Made by a program: the position numbers and the translations under genes. Positions 48,001-64,000 of a stretch of 64,000 nt of DNA are shown here, one piece after another (the stretch's first letter is position 1; each line of letters opens with the position of its first letter). This DNA is from an uncultured Planctomycetales bacterium. Lineage in GTDB: Bacteria > Omnitrophota > Gorgyraeia > Zapsychrales > GWA2-47-8. Under the pieces are notes generated by a model. It made no database searches. It had not been told where the DNA came from and saw only the letters and a program-made list of their open reading frames with translations. The stretch is taken from positions 28,278-92,277 of the forward strand of contig CAZCLW010000001.1 in NCBI GenBank assembly GCA_964499685.1, in the 5' to 3' direction.

Positions 48001-51000
48001 AGAAGCCGTTGAGTACCTCCTGGCCGAGAGACTCTTCCATGAGTTGGGCCACACCAATAACGTCACCTATGTCAGAGGCGCCATCCGCGAAGAGTTGGGC
48101 CTGATCAAAAGAGACGTTCAATTGATCCGCGTGGAGGCCCAGACCGAAGCCGCCGCCAAGATCGCCGCCTTTAAGGCCCTGGTCGCCTCAGCGGGTCAAG
48201 AAGACCTGGCCGCTGAGACCTTCTACCGCGGTAAACTCGAAGAATTCGGCCGCATGACCGACAAGGCCCAGGAAGAGGCCATCCGCAATTATCTGATGGA
48301 ATACCATATCGACGGTGAGTATGAGATCGCCGGCCACAGGGAATGGATCGTCTTAAGGAACAAAAAGGCCCTAGAATCTATCGCCAAGGCGGTCAAGAAA
48401 GACCTTAAGGCCATGCTCGCCCAGGTTGCCAAGGAAACCGGCAAAACAGAAACCGAGATATTAGCCGGTACTTTAGCCAGCAAAGAGGTCATGGCAATGA
48501 CCGCTTCCAGAGTCGATGAAGAAAGAAAAAGATATTTCCAAGAGCACAATATCAAGAAGGTGGTCGTTGTCATAGGCGGTAACGGTTCCCTCTCGGTCAA
48601 CGCCCCGGCCCTGCAGAACCAGGAAGATACCGCTATCGTCCTGGTCCAGGCCATCACCGATAACGGCGGAAGAACAGGTGAACAGGAGATCGAATTAAGG
48701 CCGGGCAAAGGACGCACCATCGGCTTAGGCGACCAGGCGGCCGCCGTTGCCAGCGGCTTGCTGACGGATGCCTTCTTGAACAGAAAGATGTACTCGAACT
48801 TCAGCGCGGATAAAGACGATGCCGAGACACCCGGTACCCTGGAAGGTGTTGTCATCTATGCCATCAAGAGCAAGTTCCCTGAAATGATCGAAAAAGAATT
48901 CGGCATCATCGAATTCATCGTCGAACAGCTCAACATGGCCAGGATCATCGATGGGGAGTTCGGCGGATTCGACTACAGCGACAAGGCCAAGGCCTATGAG
49001 AAGAAGTTCCGCTTCCAAGGAAAGAGCATCCGTAACTTGCATATGCTGGCCCTCTGGCATGAGATGGGCGCCTTCCGGGACCTCAGGGACGGCGGCGGGG
49101 TCGACGAAGAAAGGGCCAAAGTGGCCATGTACATGATGGAACGCGCCTGGGGCGTTGAAGGCCGCTTCCATGTCGTCCCGGTCGCCCTGGAACCGGCGAC
49201 CTTAAAGGCCGTGTATGCTCAGCCTATCGCCGAGAAGATGCTGGGTAAATTACGTAAATTAGACACCGATGCCATGCTCAACTTCGACACCAAGTATGTC
49301 GTCCGTAACGAGCAAGGCGAGATCATCGGCGTCTACGGCCAGAAGTTCATGGATCAGCTCAAAGGCAACAAGCTTGTTGAGTATAGGCTGGTCAAGAGCG
49401 AAGAAGATGAGAACGCTCAGCTCCCGTCCATGAACCCTGAGGTCGGGGAATGGCTCCAGAGAGCCGATGCCATCATCTTCGGACCTGGCAGCCTGTATTC
49501 GAGCATCCTCTCGCAGCTGACCGTTCCGGGCCTGGCGGTGGCGGTAAGGAATGCCAAGGCTGCCCGCAAGATCTGGTTCTTCAACCATGTCAACATGGAA
49601 GAGACCAGCAACTACACCTTCATGGATTATGTCAACGCGATCGAACGTGTCTTGAGCACCCGGGAAGTTGCCATGGCCGGCAATATGATCCAGGTCATTA
49701 GAGTAAGCCGCGATCACGGCACAGCCCGCTATATTGAAGATGCCGACCATGTTTATAAGGATGAACAGGGCAACAACTATGTCAAGATAGGCGACCTGGT
49801 CAATACCGTCTTGAGCAACAATCCGTACGGGGCAGCCGTGGATGCTTACATTCAGCAGCATGGATTGAACCAATACGGTGAACCGCAAGAAACAGCTTAC
49901 ACCAACGGTAGCCCGCTGCTCGATGAACAAAAGAGACTTAAATTCGTCGGCCGAGATGGCACCATCTATGCCGGCATGGAAGATAATAACGTCCTTCAGC
50001 GCTCTAAAGTCGAAGTCCCAGCTGAAAAGGGCGTCTATGAGTTCTATCCGATCTTGGTTGCGGAGGATGGAAGGATTATCCGCGTCTCCAAAGACGATCT
50101 CGTCCAGGTCGAGATCCGTCCCGGCGTCTATGGCTACATGAGCCCGTATGTGTATGTCAACAGACATGTCTATGCGGTCCTGAAGAACCCGGCATTGATG
50201 AGAGAGTTAGGTATCGACCTGACCAGTGACGAAGGCCTCAAGGTCCTCTGGCTCTTAAGCTGGTCCGAACAAGACGGCAAGCTCTATCACAGCCGTTCGG
50301 AAGCCGGCAAATGGGAAAAACTGGTCTACGCCGCCGATAGTGACGTTACCGAATTAGAGACCAGAGGCATCAAGAAAGACAATGTCTTAAGAGAGCGTAT
50401 CGTCAACGTCGCCCGCAAGGACTTGAAGGCCGCCGTGGGTGAAGCGGTCATCGAGACCATGGGCGGTACGGACGCCACCTCCGTGGGCAAGGTGTTCGAG
50501 GCGATGGACCTGTTGGGGAAAAAGCCGGTCCAGCCGGCCAAACAGATCTTAGATCAAGAATTTGTCTCCATTACCGATACACAAAAAGCCTATGAAGCTT
50601 TAGAACGTAAAGAAGAAGTAAGAGTCGGATATTTGCGGGGCGGAAAAGTTTATCATGAAGTGGTCATGACCGTTCCGGTAGCCAGAGCTGAAGAAGAGAT
50701 TGCAACGGTTGCTGAGTATGTGACTTTAAGGATTGCCGGAACATTATCCAGGGTCGGCGCTGAAGGCATCGTTATCTATACTCCGGCCAAGAAGGTCTAT
50801 CAGCAGATTGAAGCGTTATTGACCCAGAAATATGGCCGTGTCCCGAGCTATTTCAGCGGTATTTATGAGACCAGATTCGGAATAAAGAGAGCCAAAAGAT
50901 CGTGGGAAACAAAAGTCAAAGCCTCAGCCGCCGAAGCCATCGCTAAAGAAATTAAATATGATCAAGGTCGTGTGGTCGGCATCGATGTGGGGGCCAGCGA

Positions 51001-54000
51001 CGTTAAAGTCATCAGTTTTGTGGATGGAAAGGTTGTCTATGCTAAGGAAGTCAATTGGTATTCCGTCAGCTTCAGAAGCTCAGATATCCATTTAAGATAT
51101 TATGTGACCATGGCAAGATTGGCGCAGATCGCTATTTCGATCAAAGAAAGCACCAGTTTGGATGTACGCGGGTTTGAGGAAGAATTAAAAGAGTTAGCGC
51201 ATGATGCCAACAGCCCGCTCGATAAGATCGAAGATTTCATCAGGAGAGTTGAAGAAACCGGAATAAGGGTTATTCAATTAGATGCTGTCGGCCTGAGCAC
51301 CGCCGGTGCGGTCGTCGAAGGTCGTATCGTCCAGGAAGGTGCTCGCGTCTATCAAGGCGTTGAAGCCGAAGAATTCTGGACCAAGGTCGCTCCGATGGCC
51401 CGCCGGATTTCTGAGGCCTTGGACGGGGTCGTGGTTGGCGTGTTGAATGACGGCGATGCCGGGGCTATTTCGGTTGCCGGAACGCTCGGATTAAAGAAAA
51501 CATTGGCCTTAAGTTTAGGAACAGGTCTGGCCGGCGGATACGTTGATGAACAAGGCATGGTCACCAATAACTTAGGTGAAGTCGGTAAGGTTTCGATCGA
51601 CATTTCAGCCCGCTCAGGCCAGGAAGGATTTATCCACGAAGGCTTGAGATTGCCGGGTGCCCTCCAGCAATATACCTCACAGCGCGGTGTCTTGAGATTA
51701 GCCGACCAGGCCTGGCCGGGATTAGACAGAGAATTCAAGGAAAAGGTCGCCAAAGAATTTGCCGCTAAGCATAGCATCGACTTAAAGGATGTCCAAGACA
51801 TCATTAAGGCAGTCGGAGAAAAATTAAGCGGCACAGCCAAAGAAGAATATGAAAAAGCCATCGGGGCCCGACCGAAACTCAAATACATCCAGAAGAAGCT
51901 GACTTCGGATAACGAAGAAGAACGGAAAACAGCCGAAGCCATCTTCCGTACGATCGGATATTATTTGGCGGTCGTCGTTGAATCAAGTATTGAAGATCTC
52001 AAGATCGAAAATGTTGTCCTCTTCGGCGCGGTCACCAGCGGTAAGGCCGGTGAATTGATCGTTTCATCCACCATGGAAAACCTGAAGAATAAGGGCATTG
52101 CGGGGGTCAAAGTGCTGTTGGCTTCCGAAGAAAATTATGCCGCTAAGTTCGGAATAGAGATCAGCAAGGAATTCGGCTATCAATTTGCTGCACGCTTTGG
52201 ACAAGCCGTCGGGGCTGTTTATATGGGGTTACAAAGAAAAGTCAATCCTGAGATCGCCAAGGCTGAGCCTATCAGCGATGCAGAAGTCAAAAGAAGATTC
52301 GAAGGAACGGCTGAATATGGCATCCATCTACAACGCGTGAGATTAGAGCGCGGTTTAGCCGATCCAAGAAAGTATCATGATGCGGTTGTCCTGTTAGTAA
52401 AAGGCGATAGCTTAACGTATACGAAAGATGCTCTTGAACTGGCCAAGGGCAAGGTCATTCCGTCAGCCAGTAACATTATCGAGATACCGGCAACCATGAG
52501 CCTGGAAGAAGCGGGCCGCAAGATCGCCGAAGTCATGCAGAGAAGAAGAGATCACGGCGAAACAGCCATTATTCTGGATGTGGTTGAGGAAGATATCGAA
52601 GGTAACTTATCTGCCGTTCTCCGCACCTTTAGAAAGCTCGTCTTAGGCGGCATCAAATTCAAACAAGAACGCGTGCTGATGGTCCTCGCCGGCGGCGATG
52701 GAAAGAGAAATTATCCGATCACGCCTGCCGAAGGGTTCGGGAATAAGGGTCTGGTCAGCTCATTGAACGGCGAGCCGAATATTTATCAGGCGATCAGGCA
52801 GGGCTTGCAGATCTTCGGAGAAGGCAATACCGGTTTAGTCAGCTTGTCCACCGACCGCATCTTCGGCATTACCAAAGCCCTGACCGATTTAGGCAAGCAG
52901 GGCGTTCAATTATTAGGCAGCGAGATCCGTAAAGACCATCCGGAATGGGATTATTACGGTAAGGTCGAGGCCGATTTGGAAGGCCGTCTGGTGGCTTTGC
53001 ACAAGAGAAATTCTCCTGCTGAAGCTGAATACTTAAATCGTGATGCGGGCCGTAAATATTATCCAGCTAACAACTTAACGATTTATTATTTCGGCGATGA
53101 AATGATCAGAAGGTTCATCATGGAGGGCGGAATTGAACATGGGCCTGATATCGCCAGAAAAGACCAGGACCTCAATCAGGTCCTCGGTAAGAACGCACAG
53201 CTGTTGCAGGGTGCAGGTGTCGAGGTCGGATTTGTTTCAACCGGTGAAGATACTTATATAACCGATTTGGGCAGCAACGACAGATATTATGTCGGATATC
53301 AATCATTGTTTACAGATGCCATCTTAAGACAGTTGGTCGGGTACTCATTCATGAAGCCGAAGAAAATTGTGGGTAAGGACATGAAATTAGCTAAGGGAGT
53401 AAAAGTTGAAGACGGTGCCGTTGTTTTGGGTCGCGGTGAAATTAAGGAAGGTATCATTGAAGCTGGCGCCGTTGTCGTGAACACAACAGCTCAAAGAATT
53501 GTTGCCAGGAAAGGAACCCTGGTGATGGCTGGATACGATCCGCAAGGTGAAATAACGGGTGAAGCCGGTCAAGTCTTGAGCGATGTGGCTCTGAATGTTG
53601 AAGGCCAAAAGGTCAATGTCCGCGTAACGGCGCCAATCGAGGCTGATCCGAAAGCGACCTGGAAAGATAAGCAGTTCAGCGGATACAGCTACGCGGATCT
53701 GAAGAAATATTTGGATTATGAGGAAGTGAAAAGAAGGCTTCAAGGTGCTGACTCCACCCAACCCTTCACCGAGATCCCGGTGGCCTTAAGCGGTGAAGAT
53801 GAAGTTTCCGCCGTTGTGAAGGCTGTTCTGAAGAACGATCAAGCGATCCTCGAAGTGACGGAAGGCGCCCTCCAGCCCGGACAGGAAGAGCTATTGAAGG
53901 AAACGCTGACCAAATTATCCATGCTGGTCCGCGGGCCGCCGGTTATCTTGACCATCCGCTTGACCACCCGCCGCACTGATCTTACGATCGGTTCTTCCGC

Positions 54001-57000
54001 TTACATTGCGACCGCCAACCTCACCACCCAGGAAGTCAACGTTCATCCGCAGTACTTCACGTTGGAACCTGTTAAACAATTCGAAATTCTTTACCACGAG
54101 ATCGTCAGCCATATCGTCAATAAAGAGGCCGATGAAACGGCAGCCATGGCCGATACGAAGCGCCTTATGGTTCTTTATGAGATCTTCGACGGTAAGATCG
54201 TGGCTTTAAGCCAGTACATCGAAAGGGCCATTAAGGCCAAGAATTCTTCACTCTCAGCTGTTGTCCGGGGCGCCTTCCATGAAGCCGATAAATTGCAGAC
54301 CCGCGAAACGGCCAAAGCCCATACCGCCAAAGAACAAAAAGACCAGGTGCTTTCCTTCGGCGGCGGCAGCGGCATGCTGGTCATCCTGAAGGCCTTAAAA
54401 CAATTGACCGATCATGACTTAAATATCTTCGCGGTCCAAAGCTCGATCGACGACGGCGGCTCCACCTACAAGCTGGTCACTTCCCTGATGGAGGCCGGTT
54501 TCGGAAAGATCGTTTCCATCGGCGACCTGGTCAACGCTCTGTTCAAAGGGTTTGGTTCGACCGACAAACTCTATAAGCTTCTGGATGATCAAGGCCGTGT
54601 CAGCTTGACCACCAAGGCTGATTTAAAGAAAGATATGCCGGCTTTGGATAAAGAAGGCCGTGTATTCAAGGAAGGCAAGATCATCTTCTTTGATGAAGAC
54701 GGCGGCGTTGTTTACGTGGATTCCCTTAAGGAATTGGTCATCCGCCTCTTAAAGCGTAATGTGGAATATACAGTCGGGAACGGTGCGGGCATCGGTTATC
54801 TGGAACGGGAAAAGACCTCCACCTTAAGCCATGATTTTGTCTATTTTGCCGCCAGCCTCCTGAACCTGATCGATATTGTCGAACCGTATTTCACCCGCAA
54901 TATCATCCCGCTCAAAGGGGCCAGCATCCGCAATCTTCTGTTCGTGGCCGTCTTAGAATACCTCGGCTTGATCAACATCGACGCGCCGAAATATACGCCC
55001 GGCTCCCAGGCTTCCACTTTAAGCGACGAGAATATGAAGGAGATGGAAGCCGGCCTGGGCCTACTGGGCTCCATGGCCGGTATCTCCAAAGGACATGTTT
55101 TATTGTCACATAACCACCCGGCCACGGTTTATGCCGTGTATGAGGGCTATGTCATCCTGATCGAAGAACCGGAAAGCGACACTGAAGACAATAAACATTT
55201 TATCGTGGTCAATCTCAATAAAGAAATGCGCGAGGCGGTGGTTAAGGTCTACCGTGTCGCCCAGGAAAACGGACATGCAAAATTGATCAGCACTTCCCAT
55301 CCGGTGAATTATGCCGCCGCCAACAAAGTGGTCACCATCAGGATCGCGAACGGAAGGATATTGATCCGGATGATGGTCGATCATTTTGGGACCTTTAAGT
55401 TCGATGCGGTCCGCAGGGCCGACAAGACAGATGCGTTTGATTATATTGAGATCCATGAAGAAGCGGATCATATGGAAGAAAACTTCGTGGTCTATCAGGG
55501 CGGCGAACACCGCCTGTCCCAGGACGGCACGGGTATGGTCCGCTTCACTGCCGAGCAAGCCGGCGCTTACGAATACCGTCCGCTCAACGCGAACGGATTG
55601 AATATCTATGTCCGCAACCGTCTGGTCGCCATGCAGACCAATATCACCGAAACGGCCAATTATTCCAAGATCGTTGATTTCGGTATCGCCCAGGAAGCCG
55701 GCGAAGAACTGGTCAAAGAGGCCAAGGGCGTTTCCAAGCGCACGGTTTATGCGCCGAGCCCGAACAAACGCCTGAAGGCCAATGACGCCGTCATCGAAAG
55801 AATATTATCGCCCAAGACCAAAGCGATCACCTTCGGTCCCGGCTCACCGTTTACCAGTACACTGATCCATCTTTTGGTCAGCGATGTCCCCGAAGCCCTG
55901 GCCAAACGCAAGGCCAAAGGCGATATCCGCATTGTCTTTTTGGCCAATCCGACCGTGGACAATGAAAGCGCCGGTTACAGCCTGGAAGGCATGATGGACT
56001 TTATCGAGCAGAAGACCGGTTACCGCTTTGACGATCTCTTCACCGACGTCAATCTGACCGAGTTCGATACGACCAAATTAGAGAACTATCAGCAGATCAG
56101 TGAGGCCAACCGGCCGATGGATGCCTCCTGGTACGTCGATGAGGTTCTGAATAATTTTGAGATCCTGAATCAACTTGGCCTGGTTTATCTCCGCCTGCTT
56201 TATCGCGAAGAAAAAGAGATGGAAGAAGAGGTACGGCGCCAATACATGATCAAGGATGTCGCCGCGCTCCTGAAAGCCCTGTATCAAATCCCCACAGCTG
56301 AGATCAGGACCGATCCGGGCCAGAGCTCCAAAGAGGCCAAGAAATCCCGCGGCCCGCTGGTTGTGGACGCGTTCGAGCTTTCTCGCATCAAGCAAAAATA
56401 TACCGAGCTGCGCATTCACCGCGGGTATTTCGTTGTGGGTATGGAATACAGAGCGCCGCGCGAACCCGGCCGCGGGTTGACCGCCGGCATCGGCTTCCTT
56501 CCGGATTATACACAGTACGCGTTGGGCGACATTTTAGGTATCCGCTATTTCGACCGCGAGATCGCCGAGGCCTACATGAAAGTTTCTTCCGGCCTTAATG
56601 CAGGCGATATTGATACCTTCGAATTTATTTTCCTCCGCCCGGCCTTGAAGACCCGTATTATCGAGCAGCTCAGTCCCGAAGCCAGGGTCTATTTCGGTCA
56701 ATTATCTTTGAACCAGTTCAAGCGCCGCGTTCGGGAAGTCCTGGTAAGAGATAACCTGCGCAAAGACCGCCGCGGAGGTTTGGGTATTGCCCTGACGGCC
56801 CAATTGAGATATGCGGACCATGAAGAGCAGGGAGAATTGAATGACCTTTTGACCCGGCTGACCGGGCGCATACGCTTGATCAGCGATAACCGCGCGGTAT
56901 TGGAATACGGGGAAGCTCCTGCGGACTTTTTGCGCGTGACCATTTCCTCCATTGTGCGCACGATCTTCTTCGATCCTAAACAGCCAGCCACATTCAATGC

Positions 57001-60000
57001 CGCCAAGACCGAGCTGGCGGGTAAAACCACGCATTTACAGGAATTGAGCCAAAGCATGGTCGTCAACGGAAAAGTTGTCCGCGGTCTGGAGAAGGGCCTT
57101 GTCCGCATCGCTGAGCAAAGCGCGCCATTTACCGTAAGGATCAAAGGTGTCGGTTATAACCGCCTGCATGGTGATATCTATCTGGAACTGGAAGCGACCA
57201 GCGAAATCGTTGAAGAAGACGGGCAAAAAATCCCGGCCTTGCAGAGCCGGCAGAAGGGATTGCAGCAGCTGCCTATCGAAATAAATCCTGTCCATGCCAG
57301 CATTCCTCTTCACGTTTCTCTCGGGAAAGTGACCGAACCTATGGATGAACAGCAATCGCGCGATATCGAACAATTAAGCCAGTTAGTGACCGAAGCGCAA
57401 TTGCCTGAGTTCCATGTCGGCCGGATAGCGGTCATTTTCTACGGTCACCGTCTGCACCGGAGCATTATCCATCAGCATGATCTGCTTTTAGGTCAGGAAA
57501 ACGGTGCTTTCGCCCTGGAAGATTTTATCGCCAAGGCGGATAAAGCTTATCGTCTTGAACCGGAAGAAAAAGACGCAGAGGCCCCGGCCGTCCGCGAAGG
57601 ATTATTGGAGGGCAATGAAAAGATCGAGAAATTGATCAACTCCATTGTGTACCGTTGGCAGGAGATCGTTGAACGCGGGGCGTTCGTCTTCGACGTGGAC
57701 GGCACCTTATTGCCCAAGGGTAAAACACTGCGTGCCTTTACACAATTGGCCAATCTGCTCGTTGAATTGCTGCGGGCCAATGTCAGGATCGCCATTATCT
57801 CCGGCAACGCGGAGGCGGCCCAAAGGGAAAATATCGTCCAGCCATTAATGGAAAAATTAGGCCCGAACAAACATCTCTTGCAAGGTTTGACCATGTACGT
57901 CAACGGCGGGGCCACCAAGATCGGCTTCAACGAAGAAGGAGAAGAGTTCTACAACCTTGAGTACAACCGCCGCCATGTGATGGAATCGGCCGATCTGGCT
58001 TACTTTATCACGGTTTTAAGGGAGATGGCGCTGCGCGGGTTCAATTTAAACGACCAAGAACAGACGGAAGTGTTTGAGGCCTGGAAGTCGTTCGCTTCAA
58101 CGGATGAGTACCGTAATATCCAGTTCGATTTCAGCTGGATGACCGGCAATGCGGATTGGACGCCGAGCATTATTTCCGCCGAAGACCTGTTGAAGATGAA
58201 ACGCGAAGGCGGTTCCATAACCTGGCCGTGGGTGGAGCTCAGAGGTCAATTCGAAGAAGGGAAAATGGCCAGCTTTACGATCCGGCCTCTTTTAAGGACG
58301 CCGCATGATGTCCGGCCGGCTGTCATTGCCGCCGTCACCGACAAATTAAAGGAAAAAGCCTCTCAATACGGCATCCGTCTGGCAGGGTTATCTTCCATCG
58401 ACGTCACGCAATTAAGGGCCAATAAGGTCCAAGCCTTGACCGACTTTATTTCTGCTCAAAACCTGGATGGCGCTAGGACATTCTATTTTGGCGATGAATT
58501 CTTCCATCAAGTGATCGAAGGCTTCGAGAATGTTATCGATGAAGGTAACGATGAGCCCATCGCCCGGGATAAAGCGCTACGCAAGAAAGGCGTGGTCACC
58601 TTAAGTGTGTATGCCCATGAACAAAGCGGCTCAAAGGCCAGCTTATGGATCGGCCGCGGCCCGAAAGCGGTTACGGAATTTTTGGGCAAGGTCGTTAAGC
58701 GCCTTGAAACCCTGCCGCGCGAAAACAATGTCCAAGAGAAAATTATTTTCGAACATACGTTCATCCTGGAACCGCGGCACTTTATTGATTCCTCCGAAAG
58801 GGCCATGTTAAGAAAATCGATCAAGAGCATGATCAAAATAGAATGGTCGCGCGCGCCGCATGCGGATGATGTAGCCTCGGCCGAGGCGCTTATCCAGAAT
58901 GTGATCAGATCAAGACAAGATGTGTACCGTCAGGAGTATGCCTCGATGCCCGGGGATGAATTCTTCCGTGAATCAACGCTCGGCAAAAGCTTTGATTTTG
59001 CTTTGGAAGAGATCCTCAAGAACGCCTTCGATGCCTATGTGGCCAAGAATGCCATCGGCCCGATTCTTATACAGGTTAAAGAACAAGGCCATGCTTATGT
59101 CATCGAAGTCTCAGAAGACGGTATCGGTATCGAGTTCAGTTTGACCCGGCATGATCCTGAAAACGGCTGGCAGATCATCCGGCGGACCGGCAACGGCAAA
59201 TCACTGGCGGTCCGGGAAGGCGGCGACGGAATGGGATCACTGTGGGCGGAACTGTTAATGGAAGTCTACGGCGGATCGCTCGATTATGTGCCGGCCACCC
59301 GTCCCGGATTTGTCACCACCGCCCGGATGACCTTACCGAAGGATGCCATAACGGTCACTGTCCTTCCCAATCACATCCGCAAGGAAGCGGCCGGACAAAA
59401 TCATCCGGCGGCGAAGAATGCCAAGCGGTTGAAATTCGGGACCAGCGGCCTAAGAGGGCTGGTGGCTGAACTGACTGACATGGAAGTCTACATTAACGTT
59501 AAAGGTTTCTTGTATTATCTGATCGCCGGTAACCGCATTCAATTCGGTGATACCGTGGCGCTTGGTGAGGACTTGCGTAAGAGTTCGCCTGATATCGCCC
59601 GTGCGGTCGCCAAGGCCATGCAAGACAGCCTGATGCAGGTCATGAATGCCGGACAAGTGCCTTCCCCGGCCCTGGCCCATTATGCTCTGACCCACGCTGT
59701 GGCCGGCATCATGGTGACCGGAAGCCACATCCCCGATGACCGTAACGGCATCAAGTTCATTAAACCTGACGGGGAAGTATTGAAAGAAGATGAAGCCGCC
59801 ATCTTGAAATGGGTTGAAACGATCCGCATCGAAGAATACGCCAAGACTCTTGGACAATCTTTATTTGATGAGAACGGCAAGTTCAAGGCTGTGCCGGAAA
59901 AAATCGCGGCTACGCCGGATGTCCGCCAAGCCTACATCGACCGCTATCTGAGCCTCTTGCCTCAGGATATCTTGAGCGGTAAAAAGGTCGTTGTTTATCA

Positions 60001-63000
60001 GCATTCTTCCGTGGGCCGTGACATTCTGGCCGAGGTCCTGGCCGGTTTGGGCGCTGAGGTCGTGCCCGTCGACCGCAGCGATGAATTTGTTGCCATCGAT
60101 ACAGAACATGTCACGGAAGAAGACCGTATCTATTTCGCCGATCTCGCCCGCCAGCACTCCGATGCCTTTGCCATAGTGTCCATGGACGGCGATGCAGACC
60201 GGCCGTTTGTGATCGATGAGGCCGGGACCTTCCACCGCGGGGACGTTCTGGGGATCATCGTCGCTGTTTATCTTAAGGCCAAGTTTGCCGCGCTTCCGGT
60301 CAGCTCCAATGATGCCGCTGAAGAAGAGCTCTCTAAATATGGTATTGCGCTCAAGAAGACCAGGATCGGCTCGCCTTTTGTCATCAAAGCCATGAACGAA
60401 GCTATCGCCGGCGGGAACAACCATGTGGTCAGCTGGGAAGTCAACGGCGGGTTCCTCACGGGTACGGATTTCGCGTTCGGTCAAGGTATCCTCAAAGCCC
60501 TTCCGACAAGGGATGCGGTCCTGCCTATCCTTACGGTCATGCTGGCCGCCATTGAACAAAGGCTTTCTCTGTCTCAATTGTTCGCCCGCTTGCCCGGTCG
60601 CTATACCCAGGCCGGCCTGCTGGATAACTTCCCGATGGAAACCTCCAAGCGTGTCATTGCCGCCCTTTCGCCGGTCACGGAAGTCCAAATCGAACAGATC
60701 GAGTTCAACATCAATCATATTACCGTCCAGCTGGCCGACGGCACGAGAAATATCGTCATGCCGAACGAACCGTTCAGTCATGAACTGTGGAAGATAGCGA
60801 CCTTGATCACGGAACACTTCAGCCCCAAACAAGGCTTTGGAAGGATCATCAGTATTAATTATATCGACGGCGTACGCATCACGTTTGACCATAGAGATAT
60901 TGTTCATTTCCGTCCCTCAGGCAATGCGCCGCAGTTCCGCATTTATGCGGTCAGCCAGTCGCAGGCGCGGGCCGATGAGATCGTCGCCTTAGGCCTGGCG
61001 GAACCGGACGGTATCCTGCGTAAATTCGAACAGGAATTTGCGTCAGCCTCTGCTGCGGTCGCTCCTTCGCCGGAAAAAGTGATCGTTGAGGAAAGATTGA
61101 CCTTCGCCGAAACGGATTTCGAGAATGCCATGTCCAGGACCGGCAAGCGGTATGACCTGCTCAAGAAACTCGGTTTAGCGTGGGGCCGCACGCCGGATCC
61201 GGCGCTTATCGAACAGGCCAAGCCATTGATAGACGATCTCGTTCGCCGCCGCTTACGATGGCATCAGGATGAAGGTATTTATGAGCTCTATGACGGCACG
61301 GCCATTACGGAAGAACATCTGCGTGAAGGCGTTGTTAACAATACACTGCACTTCGTTGCCGACGAAATATTAAAGAACGCCTTCGATGCCTATGTCCGGG
61401 CTAACGCGACCGGTCCGATCCTGTTCCGGATCATTGAAAAGGACGAAAAGGTCATTATCGAGATCTCCGATAACGGTATCGGCGTCGATTTCAAATATTC
61501 ACGCAAGGATCCGCGCGGCTTCTGGTCGGTCTATTCACAAGGCCGCAAAACCTCTGAGATATCGAAGGGCGAAGTGGAGGGCGGGTTAGGCATCGGTATC
61601 CATTGGAGCCAGGTCTTGGCCATGATCCATGGCGGAGGCATGGAATTCCTCGCCGATCAATATCCGGGATATAAGACAACGGTCCGGATAACCTTACCGC
61701 TCGGTGCCGTGCGCATCAATCAGAAATCGGAGCAAGATCCTAAAGGAAAGCCTCAAGGACCGGCCGATCCCGGTGCTACCACAACGCATTCCTTTGAACC
61801 GCATACAATCTTAGGTATGTTGGCCGGTTTCTTAGTGATCCGTAACGCTTATCCGGTCGTTGCTATTGCATTAGAGATCATTGCGGTTGGCATTCTTTCG
61901 GTCATCGCCTACCGCAAATGGGTTGCGCTCAAGCAAGCCTTAGCTAAACAGCAAACTCATATCATATTGGAAAATAACTTTAGGCCGTTGCGCAGCGATT
62001 CCAACCTACCGTGGCGGGTTGTTCGGGATCTTGCAAGCGCAGCGGCCTCTTTATTTAGGCTGTTGTCCAAAGGTTCTAACCTACCGTGGCGGGTTGTTAG
62101 GAATCTTAGTGAGCGATCACTGGCAACAGCCTTTAGCTTTGTTTGGCCGTCTAGGCCGCTGTCCGTCGGCACATTCCCAATCTCCCGTGGCGGGTTGAAA
62201 GGAATTCTTGCTGTGGCAGCGGCCTTACTTGTCACCGATTCGGTTTATGCGGGCAATAATACTCCGGCAGTTTTTGCGACGAACCTGTCTGTTAATGTGC
62301 TGATCGTTCTGGCCGTGTTAGCGGGTATCGGGACGGTTGTTTCCTTGATCATATTCCTGAAGGTCCGCCGGCTTACTGCCGATTCGCTGCTGAAGAGATT
62401 CCGGTTGGCGGTCAGAAAAACCGTGTGGCTCGGGCTTACGACCCTTTACTTCGGCGTCTTTACTTTCCTGGCCGTTAAGCTTCATTTCGCCGTCAATTCT
62501 CAGGATACGGTGAAGATCGCCGAAATACAGCCAATTGTTCCTGAACAAAAAGCCCCATCACTCGAGCAATATTTCCGTGAATACGCCCGGGCCGCTCAAG
62601 TTTATCTTGATCGTCCGACGTTCCGCGGCACACCGTTGACCGGCGCAATGCTCGCCGAGGGCGCCAAAAAAGCCTTCCTTAAGACAGGCATTATCGTTCC
62701 GGTCGAGTTGGCGTTGGCCCAGGCGCAGATAGAAAGCTCCATGGCGAGAGAAGGGCGCAACCCGGCCACAAATCCGTTCAATGTCGGCGAATTCGATGCC
62801 GGAACGCGTATCCGCTTTAGCGGCATTCAAGCCGGCGTCGATGTTTACTTTACTCTTATGACGGAAAATTATCTGAATGCCCGCGGCCTGGATGAATTAT
62901 TGCGTAACTTCGTCAACAAAGATGGTTACCGGTATGCCTCCAACCGGAATTACGAACGCATGCTCAGCGGACAGGTCCAGACCATCCGAAAATATATCAA

Positions 63001-64000
63001 GGCCCAGACCAGCACCGGCACGACTGTCCGCATGGTCGAGCCGCTTTCACTCATTGCCGGTCTAATTGCCCTGCGCAACATCCATCCGATCGTGAATATT
63101 GTTATCGATCTCCTTATCCTTTTAGCGATCGTTATGATGGTCCGGAATATCCGCAAGCTGGCCAAAGCTCGTCCGGCTGAACAAAAAGCCGGCGGCTACG
63201 CCGGCATGAGCCACGGTCAAGCCGAGCAGCAACTGGAAGCCTATCAGTCTTCGGGTATCCATATTGATTTAGCCGCCAGCAGCGATATCTTGTTTGGCTA
63301 CCAGTTGGCCTTGATCTACATGGGCAAGCGGAATAAATTGAACCAAAACCGCGCTCCGCCACTGGTCTTCATCGTTGAAAATCGACAAACAAGATTTGGG
63401 GCGGTGTTCATTGAGGAAGAAAACCACATTTATTTTGAGCGTTCCCTCTTTGTTCAATTAAGCACTTCTCCGGCAGCTCTGCGTAAATTTGCCCGCGTTT
63501 TTGTCTTTATCTTAAACAACCATCCGAGTCATCTTCATAATCGTTTGGTGGAATACCGTTACGTCGCCCAATTGATCATTGTCCCCGCTGTTCAGTGGGG
63601 CCGCAATATCAAGACTTGGCTGCTCAGTTACCGCAAGGTCTGGGTCAATCGCAACGTCATGGCAGGGGCAGGGCTTTTCAGCATTGAAGAACTCAAGGCG
63701 GCCAAGGCCATTATCGACCGGTATTTATCTCCGACACCGCTGATATATTCCCATAGCTTAAGCGAGATCATTGGAGCGAATGTTTGGCTTAAATTCAATA
63801 CGCGCCATAAATTGAACGGAACGACGATCGAAACGCATTCCTATAAGATCCGCGGTGTTCTCTATAAGATCCTTGAAGCCATACAAGGAAAGACCCCTGA
63901 GCAGATAGCACAGATATCGTTTGTGGCTGCTTCCGCCGGCAATCTTGCTGAAGCCGTGGCCGCTGCGGCCAAGCTCGTGGGCGCCAAGGGCGTGATCTAC
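2..64000 (+). CDS. Internal fragment of a giant multidomain protein gene, partial at both ends. 21,333 consecutive sense codons in phase 2, with no start or stop in the window.
   Basis: Manual codon-by-codon read of the frame starting at nt 2 found no TAA/TAG/TGA through nt 64000. The ORF track has no + strand ORF in this phase, and the other five frames are fragmented into ORFs under 350 aa. Codon bias is consistent along the frame, and many recognisable protein motifs are all in this one frame. Confidence 0.93.
4960..5640 (+). other. Repeated module copy 1, containing a phosphoribosyltransferase-like PRPP-loop motif (VVLIDDAAYSGTST, nt 5386-5430), preceded by a NAAML motif
   Basis: Translation ...FIADNITHISQEDFESALGESVDQFNQ...YVVLLPPGNKSNTWVYQLARENNLREPVAVHVV...VVLIDDAAYSGTSTVGS. 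Type I PRTase motif: hydrophobic stretch, acidic DD, then SGT. Confidence 0.4.
8100..8500 (+). other. Fic/Fido-like segment with a substituted core motif QPFVDGNSRTAG (nt 8330-8365). Canonical HxFx[DE]GNGRxxR with the catalytic His replaced by Gln.
   Basis: Translation ...VGVAAEVIADLVYWQPFVDGNSRTAGLLANYVLIKAGHRPF. Spacing and flanking hydrophobics match Fic motif geometry. Confidence 0.4.
9500..9620 (+). other. Minimal nucleotidyltransferase (pol-beta superfamily) motif GS-x-DxD: IGTGSVARDRAVTG...SDYDVRVVV
   Basis: hG[GS] followed about 20 residues later by DhDh, as in MNT-fold nucleotidyltransferases. Confidence 0.35.
9940..10420 (+). other. Repeated module copy 2, a diverged paralogue of 4960-5640, with PRTase-like motif IAIFDDASYSGTQT (nt 10262-10300)
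   Basis: ...ARFIADNIQHIPQQEFERKLQRSVAAFNEE...YVAVSETGKSNEWVYELAREQGLREPQAV...IAIFDDASYSGTQTAEIV aligns position by position with copy 1, at roughly 45-50% amino-acid identity by eye. Confidence 0.4.
11240..11420 (+). other. Second minimal nucleotidyltransferase motif: LKGSALWGVKGKKKEDIDLVVMV (nt 11262-11335)
   Basis: Classic GS...[DE]hDh signature of pol-beta-type nucleotidyltransferases. Confidence 0.4.
15830..17560 (+). other. SecA-like / SF2 DEAD-motor ATPase domain. Motif I IAQNAAGKTLAIFLTAL (15881-15905); ILTLDETF; motif II ILDEVDDALNREVTYIVS (16299-16350); motif III GVSATDAG (16928-16950); motif VI-like HAVNRNTRAEEDQGRK (17497-17545).
   Basis: Order and spacing are Walker A, about 135 aa, DEVD, about 210 aa, SAT, about 190 aa, arginine-rich motif VI. 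This mirrors the SecA layout NBD1-insert-NBD2. Compare SecA MKTGEGKTL...VHVVTVNDYLA...DEVDSILIDEARTPLIIS. Confidence 0.6.
20790..21180 (+). other. Pro-rich then Gly/Ser-rich flexible linker (PPLPEEDL...IQIPPAIMPPAVLPAPILNLG...GGTGGSGGGSGGSGGSDPGASPAGPSG)
   Basis: Low-complexity translation; GGSGG repeats at 21087-21140. Confidence 0.7.
21200..22440 (+). other. Ser/Thr/Ala/Val-rich low-complexity region with atypical, A/T-richer codon usage (gta, agt, aca, tca, gtt)
   Basis: Local codon preference visibly differs from the GCC/CCG/ATC-dominated remainder. Contains the short internal repeat ILGVRAEET / ILGVRGSEE (16-nt DNA repeat attctcggagtgcgcg, 192 nt apart). Confidence 0.5.
22440..23310 (+). 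other. Cluster of about four predicted transmembrane helices (LIAFIIAISVVLSLL; ILSTVAGIGARTVVMAGAVLFLAAPAFA; LIAASFLGLSTNTWLVVGGVLVAFGAILAAIKLF; VLITLLLALITGMFAGAM)
   Basis: Hydrophobic 18-30 residue stretches flanked by charged residues (RNLSDKKK). Confidence 0.6.
24840..25200 (+). other. M23 (LytM)-like segment lacking the Zn-ligand histidines: GYRYTVPENTPVYAPTTGIVVKA...NYVITIRT...AHLGALNIKVGDAVRQGNLIGVAAKEQTGTNSSYFY
   Basis: Matches the M23 pattern GTPV.A...G.V....NYV.I.H.....Y.HL....V..G..V..G..IG..G.TG, but lacks the HxxxD and HxH Zn ligands (no HLHFE). This resembles the variant LytM domains of EnvC/NlpD. Confidence 0.4.
32700..34560 (+). other. YD/RHS-like beta-repeat region (recurring G..xYxYD/G motifs: VYTYNGPFG, TYLYDATKPEG, TRYVFDGYKS, RLTYEGISG, RYHDGQQIV, TYEYVKGHEN, AEYHTGKLV)
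   Basis: Tyr/Asp/Gly-punctuated repeats of about 20 aa period, typical of YD-repeat shells; by eye only. Confidence 0.35.
35030..36450 (+). other. Transmembrane helix cluster (LLAPTIVVIVSAFAIFTITIPLLLLAVTALISRVF; ILVVSVVIGAVGLLTYIKLTFAMSLIPFVGLALTVALLGWQII; FAAWVGTSALLAVVSFYYAAGAMPFWILTIFGGITFAFNTVVAL)
   Basis: Long hydrophobic stretches in the translated frame. Confidence 0.6.
38290..39560 (+). other. Transmembrane helix clusters (38290-38790 and 39170-39560) separated by a Lys/Glu-rich charged, AT-richer segment (38790-39170: KKEGKKKAEGENKKKKTE...)
   Basis: Hydrophobic stretches IIFLFAFFVSFTPFAYLAFPAFFIGL, WGVILLAIVVFAPFHPVGVAAQLFFYVLPFAFIFGPFLANGLGIV, FILTPMLGVLATGFTGIVALTAIGKVTIAVGVIVVIGIVMAIVSSIL. 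The charged region shows a local codon and composition shift. Confidence 0.6.
40690..41800 (+). other. ROK/ASKHA-family sugar-kinase-like domain, copy 1 (GIDVGASDVKV; VVVGLLNDGDAGAVSVAG; LSLGTGLAGGYV)
   Basis: Phosphate-1 loop hhGIDhG..., the ND(A/G)NAAA catalytic-Asp motif and the GTGhGGG adenosine motif, in the order typical of ROK/glucokinase/GlcNAc kinases. No CxCGxxGC zinc motif. Confidence 0.6.
42390..43390 (+). other. Sugar-1-phosphate nucleotidyltransferase-like domain (MILAGGDGKRNYPIT, nt 42404-42450) followed by a left-handed beta-helix / hexapeptide-repeat region (43080-43340), copy 1. The arrangement is GlmU/MurU-like.
   Basis: ILAGGxGxRhxPhT signature, followed by ...NKGLVSSLNGEPNIYQAIKQ. 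The C-terminal VIVSADVRLGKAVKIENGAIILGKGSIEAGLIEKGAVVINTTAKEV... shows hexad periodicity. Confidence 0.6.
43901..43915 (+). other. HExxH zincin-like motif (LLAERLFHELGHTNN) inside unit B; also at 48038-48052 in copy 2
   Basis: Short motif only; no downstream third ligand identified. Confidence 0.2.
44400..45560 (+). other. YvcK/CofD (UPF0052)-like domain, copy 1 (VVVVIGGNGSLS; ITDNGGRTGEQ; LGDQ; ADAIIFGPGSLYSSILSQLTVPGLAVAV...KIWFFNHVNMEETSNYTFMDYVNAIERVL)
   Basis: Matches the family hallmarks GGGxG, DDGGSSGRL, PPGDhRN and ADhIVhGPGSLYTSIhPNLLVPGI...NLMTQPGET..YT..DH in the correct order. Confidence 0.65.
46383..47620 (+). other. Spacer between the two exact repeat copies. The N-terminal part is a diverged copy of 39880-40280 (RRLPGEKM...TTYPAYNNL...). 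A Nudix-like segment with substituted box residues follows at about 47000-47190 (AFVVAPDGKVVFQRRAHHKRAAPWQISIYGGHVKAGHSYEHTILHEELPEELEI).
   Basis: Side-by-side comparison of the translations. Nudix box GX5EX7REUXEEXGU is only approximately satisfied (HEELPEELEI). Confidence 0.35.
47621..50519 (+). repeat. Copy 2 of the 2,899-bp exact direct repeat (unit B), including the YvcK/CofD-like domain copy 2 at about 48537-49697
   Basis: See copy 1. Confidence 0.85.
50950..52060 (+). other. ROK/ASKHA sugar-kinase-like domain, copy 2 (diverged paralogue of 40690-41800; GIDVGASDVKV; VVVGVLNDGDAGAISVAG; LSLGTGLAGGYV)
   Basis: Aligns with copy 1 throughout, at roughly 60-70% amino-acid identity by eye. 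Confidence 0.6.
52660..53690 (+). other. Sugar-1-phosphate nucleotidyltransferase-like (MVLAGGDGKRNYPIT, 52675-52725) plus left-handed beta-helix region, copy 2
   Basis: Diverged paralogue of 42390-43390. Confidence 0.6.
54340..55960 (+). other. Third YvcK/CofD (UPF0052)-like domain (LSFGGGSGMLVILKALK; SIDDGGSTYKL; SIGDLVNAL; ITFGPGSPFTSTLIHLLVSDVPEAL)
   Basis: Best match of the three to the family signatures GGGTGLSxLLRGLK, DDGGSSGRLR, PPGDIRN, GPGSLYTSILPNLLVPGI. Confidence 0.7.
57670..58620 (+). other. HAD-superfamily phosphatase-like domain (motif I FVFDVDGTLL at 57685-57712; motif IV-like YFGDEF at 58484-58500), probably with a cap domain in between
   Basis: DxDGT nucleophile motif with both aspartates present; a distal GDxx acidic motif about 265 aa downstream. 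Confidence 0.55.
58960..59350 (+). other. GHKL / histidine-kinase-like ATPase (HATPase_c) domain 1 (N-box EEILKNAFDA; G1 SEDGIGI; G2 GGDGMGSLWAELLMEVYGGSL; ...ARMTLP)
   Basis: Bergerat-fold motifs in canonical order. Confidence 0.55.
59420..60990 (+). other. Alpha-D-phosphohexomutase (PGM/PMM/GlmM-like) domain with all four signature loops: KFGTSGLRG (59434-59457), TGSHIPDDRNGIK (59717-59755), DGDADR (60185-60202), HFRPSGNAPQFRIY (60904-60945)
   Basis: The loops appear in the canonical order of the four PGM/PMM subdomains: N-terminal GxSGhRG, the phosphoserine loop TASHNP (here TGSHIP, Ser retained), the metal loop DGDGDR, and the sugar-phosphate loop (G)RPSGTEP..R.Y. Confidence 0.75.
61340..61700 (+). 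other. GHKL / HATPase_c-like domain 2 (DEILKNAFDA; SDNGIGV; GGLGIGIHWSQVLAMIHGGGMEF; ...VRITLP), paralogous to domain 1
   Basis: Same motif set as 58960-59350. The two flank the phosphohexomutase domain. Confidence 0.55.
61790..63150 (+). other. Transmembrane helix cluster (ILGMLAGFLVIRNAYPVVAIALEIIAVGILSVIAY; VNVLIVLAVLAGIGTVVSLIIFL; VWLGLTTLYFGVFTFLAV; LIAGLIALRNIHPIVNIVIDLLILLAIVMMV)
   Basis: Hydrophobic stretches in frame. Confidence 0.6.
61999..62110 (+). repeat. Short direct repeat: ttc(c/t)aacctaccgtggcgggttgtt(c/a)gg(g/a)atctt, two copies 75 nt apart, encoding SNLPWRVVR(D/N)L. A partial third copy ccgtggcgggttg lies at 62185.
   Basis: Direct base comparison. Confidence 0.7.
63700..64000 (+). 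other. N-terminal part of a PLP-dependent fold-type-II (tryptophan-synthase-beta-like) domain, truncated by the window end: TPL...LKFNTRHKLNGTTIETHSYKIRGVLYKILEA...ISFVAASAGNLAEAVAAAAKLVGAKGVIY
   Basis: Matches T.L......V.LK.E..NPTGSFK.RG (PLP-binding Lys) followed by V.AASSGNHG.A.A.AA..G of threonine dehydratase / cysteine synthase / threonine synthase. Only about 100 aa are visible. Confidence 0.5.

Follow-up and report, generated by a model that had tools for sequence, protein, structure and literature searches.

A phosphohexomutase lodged between two ATP-binding domains of the GHKL type raises the question of whether the three domains form a unit of their own, and of what the ATPases could do to the enzyme. 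A first-pass annotation of the window (the whole 64,000-nucleotide stretch of DNA analysed here) had described such an arrangement, a complete PGM/PMM-type mutase between two paralogous GHKL domains; Pfam matches to HATPase_c and PGM_PMM, together with similarity between the paralogues at E ~1e-35, bear this description out. The region contains the following features:

57683–58498, + strand: HAD-IIB (Cof/Hydrolase_3-type) phosphatase or phosphomutase-like domain (Pfam Hydrolase_3, NCBIfam HAD-SF-IIB)
58736–59389, + strand: GHKL module 1 (GHKL1), an N-terminal extension of ~90 aa and a histidine-kinase-type ATP-binding core (Pfam, paralogy, motifs)
59006–59041, + strand: GHKL1 N-box, EILKNAFDAYV
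59111–59131, + strand: GHKL1 G1 box, SEDGIGI, with Glu where the family has Asp
59216–59239, + strand: GHKL1 G2 box, EGGDGMGS
59390–61054, + strand: phosphomannomutase-type alpha-D-phosphohexomutase (PMM), four domains (Pfam, PDB profile match, AlphaFold)
59717–59749, + strand: mutase Ser loop, TGSHIPDDRNG, catalytic Ser codon 59723–59725
60185–60205, + strand: mutase metal loop, DGDADRP
60434–60454, + strand: mutase sugar loop, WEVNGGF
60911–60940, + strand: mutase phosphate loop, RPSGNAPQFR
61073–61750, + strand: GHKL module 2 (GHKL2), N-terminal extension and ATP-binding core, all family motifs canonical (Pfam, AlphaFold, Foldseek)
61361–61396, + strand: GHKL2 N-box, EILKNAFDAYV
61466–61486, + strand: GHKL2 G1 box, SDNGIGV
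61577–61600, + strand: GHKL2 G2 box, EGGLGIGI

The in-frame translation of nt 56003–64000 was searched with Pfam, and the matches to PGM_PMM_I (E 8.6e-23, nt 59429–59821), PGM_PMM_II (E 2.5e-10, nt 59930–60226) and PGM_PMM_III (E 1.3e-08, nt 60239–60601) were above cutoff, with PGM_PMM_IV matching weakly (14.7 bits against a cutoff of 23.1, nt 60839–60985). The mutase matches the phosphomannomutase PDB 4hjh_A at E 2.5e-94. It shares ~50% identity across its whole length with stand-alone bacterial phosphomannomutases of this type (481 aa for 4hjh_A, 550–580 aa for the closest homologues, which are ordinary stand-alone enzymes), and 4hjh_A has exactly the same Ser loop (VTGSHIPDDRNG) and the same metal loop (DGDADRP). 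With all four loops intact, the middle domain is, judged by its sequence, a catalytically complete phosphomannomutase, as the annotation had it. Unlike the 4HJH-type enzymes it is internal to a giant polypeptide and bracketed by GHKL domains; a GHKL module was found in 0 of its 120 closest phosphomannomutase homologues.

For the flanking domains, HATPase_c matched in two stretches (E 1.4e-15; 58.1 bits, cutoff 26.4), the best at nt 61343–61702; the upstream copy was placed by HATPase_c_3, which matched weakly at nt 58988–59134. The two copies share 37% identity over 156 aa (E 4e-36) or, in a longer alignment, 33% over 216 aa (E 1e-34). As this repeat begins ~90 residues upstream of each N-box, the full units were taken to be nt 58736–59389 and 61073–61750. 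The N-box, G1 and G2 motifs quoted in the annotation are present in both, and a profile built from the two copies identified no third one in the window's 21,333 aa. AlphaFold modelled GHKL2 with its extension at pLDDT 91.9 and pTM 0.88, the extension forming a mixed alpha/beta unit packed onto the GHKL core and not a free helical hairpin. Domain annotation with HMMs and structure prediction, which the annotation had named as tests, show both flanking regions to be Bergerat-fold GHKL domains. In GHKL1, alone in the family, the Asp of the adenine contact is replaced by Glu, and this module may be weakened.

The unit is not self-contained. A six-frame stop scan revealed a frame without stops from nt 2 to 64000, 21,333 codons long and open past both ends of the window, which is why it was missing from the program-made list of open reading frames. 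Pfam matches lie in this frame from nt 5102 to 64000, and its further domains include PRTase-CE, Fic, M23, NTP-transferase, CofD, NUDIX, HAD-IIB and PALP, with hydrophobic segments interspersed. The features on this larger scale are:

2–64000, + strand: giant multi-domain gene fragment (six-frame stop scan; Pfam domains in one frame)
39530–61830, + strand: stretch of ~7,400 residues without a TM-like segment (Pfam, Kyte-Doolittle)
42500–42847, + strand: NTP_transferase, inside the TM-free stretch (Pfam)
44426–45577, + strand: best of the CofD copies, inside the TM-free stretch (Pfam)
47006–47398, + strand: NUDIX, inside the TM-free stretch (Pfam)
61832–61912, 62297–62353 and 63086–63142, + strand: three strongly hydrophobic TM-like segments (Kyte-Doolittle scan)
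63722–64000, + strand: first part of a PLP-dependent domain (threonine/serine dehydratase-like), truncated at the window end (Pfam PALP, NCBIfam)

The mutase and its flanking GHKL domains therefore take up ~3 kb (~1,000 residues) of a single gene at least 64 kb long, whose product exceeds 21,333 aa and is a membrane-threaded chain of many enzyme domains, of the Omnitrophota “multi-enzyme” giant type. That the frame is an assembly chimera or non-coding sequence free of stops, in which case the domain arrangement would be meaningless, is extremely improbable. An identical direct repeat of 2,899 nt (nt 43484–46382 and 47621–50519) means that some of the window is possibly affected by assembly, but the GHKL/PMM region is 8 kb away from it, 21,333 codons without a stop are impossible by chance, significant domain matches fall in one frame across all 64 kb, and homologous ORFs, open over their full length, are found in independent MAGs and metagenome contigs. 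The closest relatives of the giant ORF are contig-spanning ORFs in Omnitrophota MAGs: a 1,259-aa segment adjoining the GHKL/PMM region has 46% identity with a partial protein from an Omnitrophota MAG, and L001, L002, L003, L006, L007 and L011, from MAGs that are either Omnitrophota or unclassified PVC-type, are each open across the entire fetched length.

Giant multi-enzyme proteins of Omnitrophota have been named “Archaeovorins” (West-Roberts et al., 2023, bioRxiv 10.1101/2023.11.21.568195), and a “multi-enzyme metabolic cluster” class of such giants is described in a 2026 preprint (10.64898/2026.06.07.730766). Like these giants, the window is one ORF, tens of kilobases long, with many enzyme domains, none dominating, and interspersed hydrophobic segments, and it shares a repertoire of HATPase_c, PGM/PMM, HAD, NUDIX, ROK and peptidases, of which HATPase_c, PGM/PMM, HAD and NUDIX are already listed there (10.1101/2023.11.21.568195; 10.64898/2026.06.07.730766); its closest sequence relatives, at 43–46% identity, are in Omnitrophota MAGs. 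It differs in showing no SecA-DEAD, C39, HEAT, GT or dockerin domains, but the gene is truncated at both ends. HATPase_c and PGM/PMM fall into separate protein-level co-occurrence modules in the later preprint (10.64898/2026.06.07.730766), and the available parts of the two preprints describe neither a GHKL subfamily with an N-terminal extension nor its place after a mutase or HAD domain (10.1101/2023.11.21.568195; 10.64898/2026.06.07.730766).

The TM-free stretch also includes the HAD-IIB domain, GHKL1, the mutase and GHKL2, and its single hydrophobic peak (aa 20082) belongs to a strand inside the mutase. We read it as a nucleotide-sugar and sugar-phosphate block on one side of the membrane and, since NTP-transferase, CofD, NUDIX, HAD and PMM domains use ATP or NTPs, this block probably faces the cytoplasm, the TM-like segments and the topology being a Kyte-Doolittle hydropathy estimate only. 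The first TM-like segment begins 28 residues past the end of GHKL2, and the PLP-dependent domain beyond was recognised by Pfam PALP (E 5.8e-12) and by NCBIfam threonine ammonia-lyase models (E ~1e-12). At the other end of the region, the HAD-IIB domain matches Hydrolase_3 (E 9.6e-05; 22.7 bits, cutoff 20.9) and HAD-SF-IIB (E 1.2e-08, but with 35.3 bits below the cutoff of 41.8), has the nucleophile motif FDVDGTL at nt 57692–57706, and shares 39% identity with its counterpart in L003/P0128.

The flanking domains belong to a distinct, undescribed GHKL subfamily that occurs beside sugar-phosphate enzymes. It is rare: in a set of 1.84 billion representative proteins it has ~45 members. A profile search of this set gave 173 matches at E<=1e-3, of which 36 reached E<=1e-10 and 10 reached E<=1e-30, the best being long fragments (P0121 has three copies), and a word-indexed search returned no members. 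Although the members share only ~30% identity, the ATP-binding residues are nearly invariant in a census of 45 modules (E98, G137 and T202 in all 45, N102 in 44, the G1 Asp in 43); W37 is Trp in all 35 modules covering the column.

What stands before the module varies. It starts 0–8 residues past the end of the mutase envelope in the window, P0122, P0123 and P0130, and HAD domains lie near it in the window, P0131, P0128/L003, L011, L001 and P0129. The metagenomic P0123 (1,330 aa) and P0130 (1,277 aa; PGM-GHKL-NagB, on a 360-kb contig amid housekeeping genes) have a phosphohexomutase followed within a few residues by a module 32–38% identical to GHKL2; in contrast to the window, they are complete genes of normal size (~1,300 aa) with one module, placed after the mutase, and no upstream copy. 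Their mutase, of another subfamily, is barely alignable to that of the window by BLASTP (a weak local match of 24–32% identity in the Ser-loop region), and therefore two mutase subfamilies carry the same module. Directly before other copies are RidA (P0124), a sugar transferase (P0151), NUDIX (L001), a cytidylyltransferase (L007) and DUF218 (L011), and many copies are without a recognisable neighbour. Coupling to a mutase is not obligatory, because P0136 has a P0123-like architecture without a mutase; these unrelated domains, the lack of a module in the 120 phosphomannomutase homologues, and the separate co-occurrence modules of HATPase_c and PGM/PMM (10.64898/2026.06.07.730766) are further points against it.

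It is about an even chance that the locus consists of two consecutive cassettes inside the TM-free block, each with a GHKL module placed after a sugar-phosphate enzyme (HAD-IIB-GHKL1 and PMM-GHKL2). It is improbable that the three domains are instead a dedicated regulatory unit, with both GHKL domains clamping the mutase or phosphorylating it in the manner of a serine kinase. In favour of such a unit, the linkers are short (~0–30 residues), the sole two GHKL copies in 21,333 aa bracket the mutase, mutase followed by GHKL recurs elsewhere, the ATP-binding motifs are conserved, and serine kinases (PDK, BCKDK) are the best Foldseek matches. However, the recurrence of the sandwich, which the annotation had proposed to look for in other genomes, was not borne out among the 1.84 billion representative proteins or in scans of genome and metagenome contigs; P0123 and P0130 have the module after the mutase and none before it; GHKL1 begins 79 residues past the HAD domain, a spacing identical in P0131; and a joint AlphaFold prediction of GHKL1-PMM-GHKL2 (pTM 0.64) gave the mutase pLDDT 90–98 and the GHKL parts pLDDT <50, with no confident packing between domains, an outcome that the shallow alignment of the GHKL parts may explain.

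As a whole, we somewhat favour an account that combines the giant gene, the rare GHKL subfamily, the cassettes and a putative action in cis. Each module would bind ATP and act on neighbouring domains of its own chain, as a histidine-independent kinase or as an ATP-dependent switch; this action is the tentative part, and on present evidence rather doubtful. Phosphorylation of the catalytic serine is required for phosphohexomutase activity, and in the most specific version for the mutase the GHKL module would phosphorylate that serine (codon 59723–59725). We know of no GHKL kinase acting on a mutase; the suggestion of the annotation, that the mutase is phosphorylated or under ATP-dependent control, is possible.

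PDK1-4 and BCKDK, the mitochondrial-type GHKL serine protein kinases, act without histidine, their target being a serine in a metabolic enzyme. They too have a GHKL core after an N-terminal helical region. In searches with Foldseek and against PDB profiles GHKL2 matched PDK/BCKDK and histidine-kinase catalytic domains, PDK and BCKDK being the best Foldseek matches (E 8e-6 to 5e-4). The TM-scores to PDK are, however, only 0.35–0.38 (rmsd 11–15 Å), the sequence-profile E-values only ~4e-4 to 5e-3, and Pfam gave no match to the PDK/BCKDK N-terminal domain; the resemblance is a lead and not evidence of membership.

By sequence profile the best matches are the catalytic (CA) domains of histidine kinases (WalK/YycG/VicK; PDB 3sl2, 5c93, 4u7n; E 1e-9), which share the Bergerat fold, the N, G1 and G2 boxes and a C-terminal “TT.R..LP” strand. 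The anti-sigma-type assignment that had been considered is not supported, HATPase_c_2 scoring 26.2 bits against a cutoff of 27.4. The modules might be catalytic halves of two-component histidine kinases, with DHp/His and receiver partners elsewhere in the protein or genome, a reading to which the WalK/YycG/VicK/SrrB-type matches (E 1e-9 to 1e-7) and matching NCBIfam histidine-kinase models lend some weight, as do the receiver domains in 105 published long Omnitrophota proteins (10.64898/2026.06.07.730766). We consider it very unlikely: HisKA, HPt and Response_reg have 0 Pfam matches in the window's 21,333 aa, and no DHp/HisKA domain, one of the usual GHKL partners named in the annotation, lies alongside the modules. 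In place of DHp, phospho-acceptor His and receiver, the core bears the ~90-aa family-specific extension (a strand, two long helices and the invariant Trp), predicted to pack on it as described above; across the family this extension has no conserved histidine, the residue after the frequent Trp being H, Y or F.

The modules could also be catalytically irrelevant, either structural or oligomerisation domains or C-terminal leftovers of smaller proteins fused into the giant ORF. The shuffled domain order among relatives would fit this, as would complete proteins of 1.3 kaa whose module lies towards the C-terminus (P0123) and the place of GHKL2 as the last soluble domain ahead of a hydrophobic segment in the window; across the family a TM-like segment follows within 150 aa in 8 of 41 modules, against 12% at random positions, but this enrichment is weak. 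In a purely structural relic one would not expect the residues that bind Mg-ATP (Glu and Asn of the N-box, the G1 Asp, the G1/G2 glycines and Thr202) to be near-invariant at ~30% identity, as they are, and we regard irrelevance as improbable.

A single stop-free frame of 21,333 codons runs along the plus strand of the window from nt 2 to 64000 and is open at both ends; since it never closes within the window, no long plus-strand ORF appears in the ORF listing. A hydropathy scan places about 20 TM-like segments, in clusters, across its at least 21,333 aa. With a single ORF of more than 10,000 aa, some ten distinct domain families and interspersed TM-like segments, the window captures part of a giant multi-enzyme ORF.

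Features of the continuous plus-strand frame
nt 5024-5830 and 9866-10768, plus strand: two copies of a PRTase-CE domain (35% mutual identity, E 1e-44)
nt 8258-8386, plus strand: Fic/DOC domain (Pfam), between the two PRTase-CE-like domains
about nt 22.4-23.3 kb, plus strand: cluster of TM-like segments
nt 24872-25108, plus strand: Peptidase_M23 domain, peptidoglycan endopeptidase-type (Pfam E 4.5e-09)
nt 35-39.5 kb, plus strand: clusters of TM-like segments
nt 57683-58498, plus strand: HAD-IIB hydrolase domain
nt 58736-59389, plus strand: GHKL1, first copy of the GHKL module
nt 59390-61054, plus strand: PMM, the phosphohexomutase
nt 61073-61750, plus strand: GHKL2, second copy of the GHKL module
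nt 61832-63142, plus strand: three TM-like segments directly after GHKL2
nt 63722-64000, plus strand: PLP-dependent threonine/serine dehydratase-like domain, cut by the window end, after the three TM-like segments
Further Pfam domains in the same frame: NTP_transferase, CofD (three stretches) and NUDIX

The approximately 4,667 residues encoded by nt 28004-42004 gave no Pfam match at E ≤ 0.01 and contain several of the TM-like clusters (nt 35-39.5 kb). As the hydropathy scan found no TM-like segment in nt 39.5-61.8 kb, GHKL-PMM-GHKL closes a block of about 7,400 residues free of such segments. The enzymes in this block deal with nucleotide sugars and sugar phosphates (NTP-transferase, CofD, NUDIX, HAD-IIB, PMM); because ATP and NTPs are needed there, it probably faces the cytoplasm. 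The PLP domain, of an amino-acid-metabolism type, lies downstream of the sugar-phosphate block; it is unusual to find PRTase-CE and Fic in one ORF with sugar-metabolism domains; and the Peptidase_M23 domain lies some 1.6 kb downstream of the first TM-like cluster. A 348-aa ATG-started antisense ORF inside the mutase (nt 59861-60907, minus strand) is regarded as a by-product of the coding strand and not as a gene, and the further long antisense ORFs at nt 45122-46030 and 49259-50167 are most likely by-products of the same kind.

Internal repeats were revealed by BLAST of the 21,333-aa translation in 500-aa tiles, the whole-sequence self-BLAST having returned the identity match only. A direct repeat of 2,899 nt, 100% identical and in the coding frame (nt 43484-46382 and 47621-50519; 4,137 nt from start to start), spans CofD-type domains; a very recent duplication within the gene would account for it, as would an error of assembly. 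It is flanked by an older duplication of about 1,100 aa (nt 39875-43534 versus 50462-53812; 61-74% protein identity), which includes a region resembling the ROK-containing part of L001, one of the relative loci discussed below.

Giant multi-enzyme ORFs have recently been recognised in Omnitrophota-like bacteria, their function being unexplained. One preprint describes Omnitrophota proteins that reach 85,804 aa and places HATPase_c among the 20 most frequent domains, with NUDIX, HAD_2 and PGM/PMM among the others (West-Roberts et al., 2023; 10.1101/2023.11.21.568195). A 2026 preprint (10.64898/2026.06.07.730766) reports proteins of up to 147,155 aa, defines a class of “multi-enzyme metabolic cluster” and gives, for a catalogue of 916 long proteins, PF02518 in 136, PGM_PMM in 88/65/64, HAD_2 in 74 and ROK in 44. 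The window fits this class, and its ORF probably belongs to the Omnitrophota, the nearest relatives (37-46% identity) being from MAGs of Omnitrophota or MAGs labelled Planctomycetales, Endomicrobiales and KSB1; a neighbouring segment of 1,259 aa is 46% identical to a partial Omnitrophota MAG protein. N-terminal C39/S8 peptidase and SecA-DEAD-like domains are reported as common in full-length Omnitrophota giants, whereas neither type of domain is found within the 64 kb, the ORF extending past both ends. The published domain lists are silent on domain order and cooperation, and the GHKL subfamily treated here, its extension and its position after mutase or HAD domains are not described in the accessible parts of either preprint; a full-text literature search for phosphoglucomutase with HATPase_c gave nothing else relevant. 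The giant multi-enzyme ORF is thus already known as a type; new are this particular GHKL subfamily and the way it repeatedly follows phosphohexomutases as a fusion. They give a concrete piece of domain order, in which a rare ATP-binding module stands directly behind sugar-phosphate enzymes, in giant ORFs as well as in two genes of normal size.

Judged by its sequence, the middle domain is a complete four-domain alpha-D-phosphohexomutase. PGM_PMM_I (E 8.6e-23, 81 bits), II (E 2.5e-10, 41.2 bits) and III (E 1.3e-08, 35.4 bits) all score above the Pfam cutoffs; PGM_PMM_IV is weak (14.7 bits versus a cutoff of 23.1), and domain IV aligns as a second stretch to the phosphomannomutase structure 4hjh_A. 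Against this structure (E 2.5e-94), the serine loop (VTGSHIPDDRNG) and the metal loop (DGDADRP) are identical and the sugar and phosphate loops conserved; the loops of a phosphohexomutase are all present (Ser, TGSHIPDDRNG; metal, DGDADRP; sugar, WEVNGGF; phosphate, RPSGNAPQFR). Among 5.8 billion proteins, those closest to the mutase are ordinary phosphomannomutases, 550-580 aa long and about 50% identical to it; these stand-alone proteins align with just the middle 54% of the 995-aa query, and the GHKL module is absent from all 120 best phosphomannomutase homologues. Phosphomannomutase activity, on mannose or glucose phosphates, is predicted from similarity to annotated proteins; the mutase domain does not reach the NCBIfam equivalog cutoffs.

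HATPase_c (PF02518) was found in two stretches bracketing the mutase (E 1.4e-15; 58.1 bits versus a cutoff of 26.4), and the two are paralogous (37% identity over 156 aa, E 4e-36; 33% over 216 aa, E 1e-34). The HMM annotation therefore bears out the first-pass annotation, which had read a mutase sandwiched between paralogous GHKL ATPase domains. The repeated unit is larger than was then thought, beginning about 90 residues ahead of each N-box. A profile built from the two copies detected no third copy in the window, and a word-indexed protein search with the two-copy alignment gave no match. Searched exhaustively with HMMER, 1.84 billion cluster representatives yielded 173 proteins at E ≤ 1e-3, of which 36 reach E ≤ 1e-10 and 10 reach E ≤ 1e-30; matches weaker than about E 1e-8 are ordinary histidine kinases aligned over the core only. 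What is left is a specific family of about 45 full modules, most of them in long proteins (2-7 kaa) that are cut by contig ends; some proteins carry two or three copies.

At about 30% shared identity, the 45 modules conserve the N-box Glu (45/45) and Asn (44/45), the G1 Asp (43/45) and glycines (44/45 and 45/45), the G2 glycines (41/45) and Thr202 (45/45). The N-box Asn (Mg), the G1 DxGxG (adenine) and the glycine-rich hinge of the G2 lid are present in both window copies, with Glu replacing the G1 Asp in GHKL1, the sole such case in the family. In the N-terminal extension, Trp37 is invariant in the 35 modules that span its column, and Arg22 is kept in 26 of 27; the extension motif is RR..W[H/Y/F]Q[D/E]E, with a gap at this motif in GHKL1.

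An AlphaFold model of GHKL2, built from a 16-sequence family alignment (pLDDT 91.9, pTM 0.88), predicts the alpha/beta sandwich of a Bergerat fold, as the first-pass annotation had supposed. In the model, the extension (a 10-residue strand, helices 14-33 and 43-66 and a short helix 80-88) packs on a Bergerat core of N-box helix 92-110, strands, a lid of about 40 residues, helix 175-185 and terminal strands. Foldseek matches in the PDB are exclusively GHKL kinases. The serine kinases PDK1/2/4 and BCKDK rank first (E 8e-6 to 5e-4), but with a TM of only 0.35-0.38 and an rmsd of 11-15 Å, and we did not accept membership of this group; PDK/BCKDK combine an N-terminal four-helix bundle with the GHKL core, whereas the predicted extension of the window module has a long beta-strand plus helices. 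Histidine-kinase cores come next, CusS and the WalK-type 5c93 (121 columns, rmsd 4.8 Å, 25% identity), and the best sequence-profile matches are likewise the catalytic domains of WalK/YycG/VicK/SrrB (E 1e-9 to 1e-7). A two-component sensor histidine kinase was rejected all the same: no His is conserved along the roughly 90 aa of the extension, neither across the 16 aligned sequences nor between the two window copies, and no HisKA (DHp) or receiver (Response_reg) domain was matched by Pfam in the window's 21,333 aa. Nor did the suggested serine-kinase control of anti-sigma-factor type (SpoIIAB/RsbW) hold, as HATPase_c_2 (PF13581) reaches 26.2 bits against a cutoff of 27.4, in GHKL2 only, and no STAS domain was found. 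On these sequence criteria, GHKL1 and GHKL2 represent a rare GHKL subfamily of histidine-kinase type that has an N-terminal extension, keeps the ATP-binding residues and lacks a phospho-acceptor apparatus.

A genome scan with a 7-sequence GHKL alignment and the pattern [LIV]KNAFDAY gave nine loci and a metagenome scan four; none holds a second GHKL-mutase-GHKL sandwich. Six relative loci (L001, L002, L003, L006, L007 and L011), found in MAGs of Candidatus Omnitrophota or in MAGs labelled Planctomycetales or Endomicrobiales, each remain open in one frame over all the fetched DNA, up to 20.5 kb, on contigs of up to 107 kb. Collinearity with the window was ruled out, the common domains being shuffled and not syntenic. 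PGM/PMM stands directly upstream of the module in the window and in the relatives P0122, P0123 and P0130, with the junction within 0-8 residues in each, and a HAD domain is upstream at a distance of 79 residues in the window and 80 residues in P0131. Elsewhere the place directly upstream is taken by RidA (P0124), a sugar transferase (P0151), NUDIX (L001), a cytidylyltransferase (L007) or DUF218 (L011); in P0128 (encoded by L003) and L011, HAD-IIB or PGM domains follow at most about 1,000 residues downstream of the module. A tendency of the module to be the final domain before a membrane pass was too weak to retain (8 of 41 modules, versus 12% at random).

P0123 (1,330 aa) and P0130 (1,277 aa; PGM-GHKL-NagB) are complete genes, the latter on a 360-kb contig among ribosomal-protein, pheST and zapAB genes, and they are collinear homologues (32% identity over 845 aa). 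Their modules share 32-38% identity with GHKL2, but their mutases can scarcely be aligned with that of the window; two mutase subfamilies thus have the same module immediately behind domain IV. The pairing is optional, P0136 having a P0123-like architecture minus the mutase.

In every mutase-bearing relative the module follows the mutase and does not precede it, and the spacing of GHKL1 behind the HAD domain is that of P0131. The sandwich is most simply read as two successive enzyme-then-GHKL cassettes, HAD-IIB followed by GHKL1 and PMM by GHKL2. Phosphohexomutases are active only as phospho-enzymes and normally need a sugar-1,6-bisphosphate activator. We tentatively favour, with distinctly less than even confidence, the reading that the GHKL modules act ATP-dependently in cis on adjoining domains; in the sharpest version, the module would phosphorylate the catalytic serine of the mutase (Ser19908, codon at nt 59723-59725). 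Against a mutase-specific role stand the diverse other neighbours of the module and the placing of HATPase_c and PGM/PMM in separate co-occurrence modules in the 2026 preprint (10.64898/2026.06.07.730766). A joint AlphaFold model of GHKL1-PMM-GHKL2 has no confident interface: the mutase reaches pLDDT 90-98 and the GHKL parts fall below 50, the composite alignment being probably shallow or misaligned there, and the model speaks neither for nor against contact between the domains. It is a long shot that the module would be a built-in, histidine-independent priming kinase, phosphorylating from ATP the catalytic Ser of the adjacent mutase, and perhaps the HAD Asp nucleophile, to give phospho-enzymes free of the sugar-bisphosphate activator. 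The first-pass interpretation is therefore supported in part, its domains and fold standing, its anti-sigma reading abandoned and its ATP-dependent regulation or phosphorylation of the mutase possible.

If such priming were true, the mutases of two subfamilies that are followed by the module would form a novel, self-activating class, and GHKL kinases would gain a new class of substrate. Regulation or priming of enzymes by the module would more generally offer a first handle on the control of giant polypeptides and a new route of phosphohexomutase activation; failing that, the arrangement would be one further domain combination in a known class of giant proteins.

Several regions without a Pfam match accompany the module in relatives. 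The non-giant proteins P0122, P0123 (L010:206-4198) and P0136 have in common a C-terminal region past the GHKL module, with the motif “GGIDL(N/T)...PVI.G(V)...FLG”, and an N-terminal domain (about 400 aa; “LSPYEKDRIVPEAFGETEMGRDLLAQDY”) is common to P0123 and P0136. In P0121, the Omnitrophota MAG protein of locus L002, a repeat starting “DPAWPREGY...” (residues ~20-170 and ~790-960) lies ahead of the GHKL modules; it carries an HExxH-like “HEIH/HEF” motif and may be a metalloprotease-like domain.
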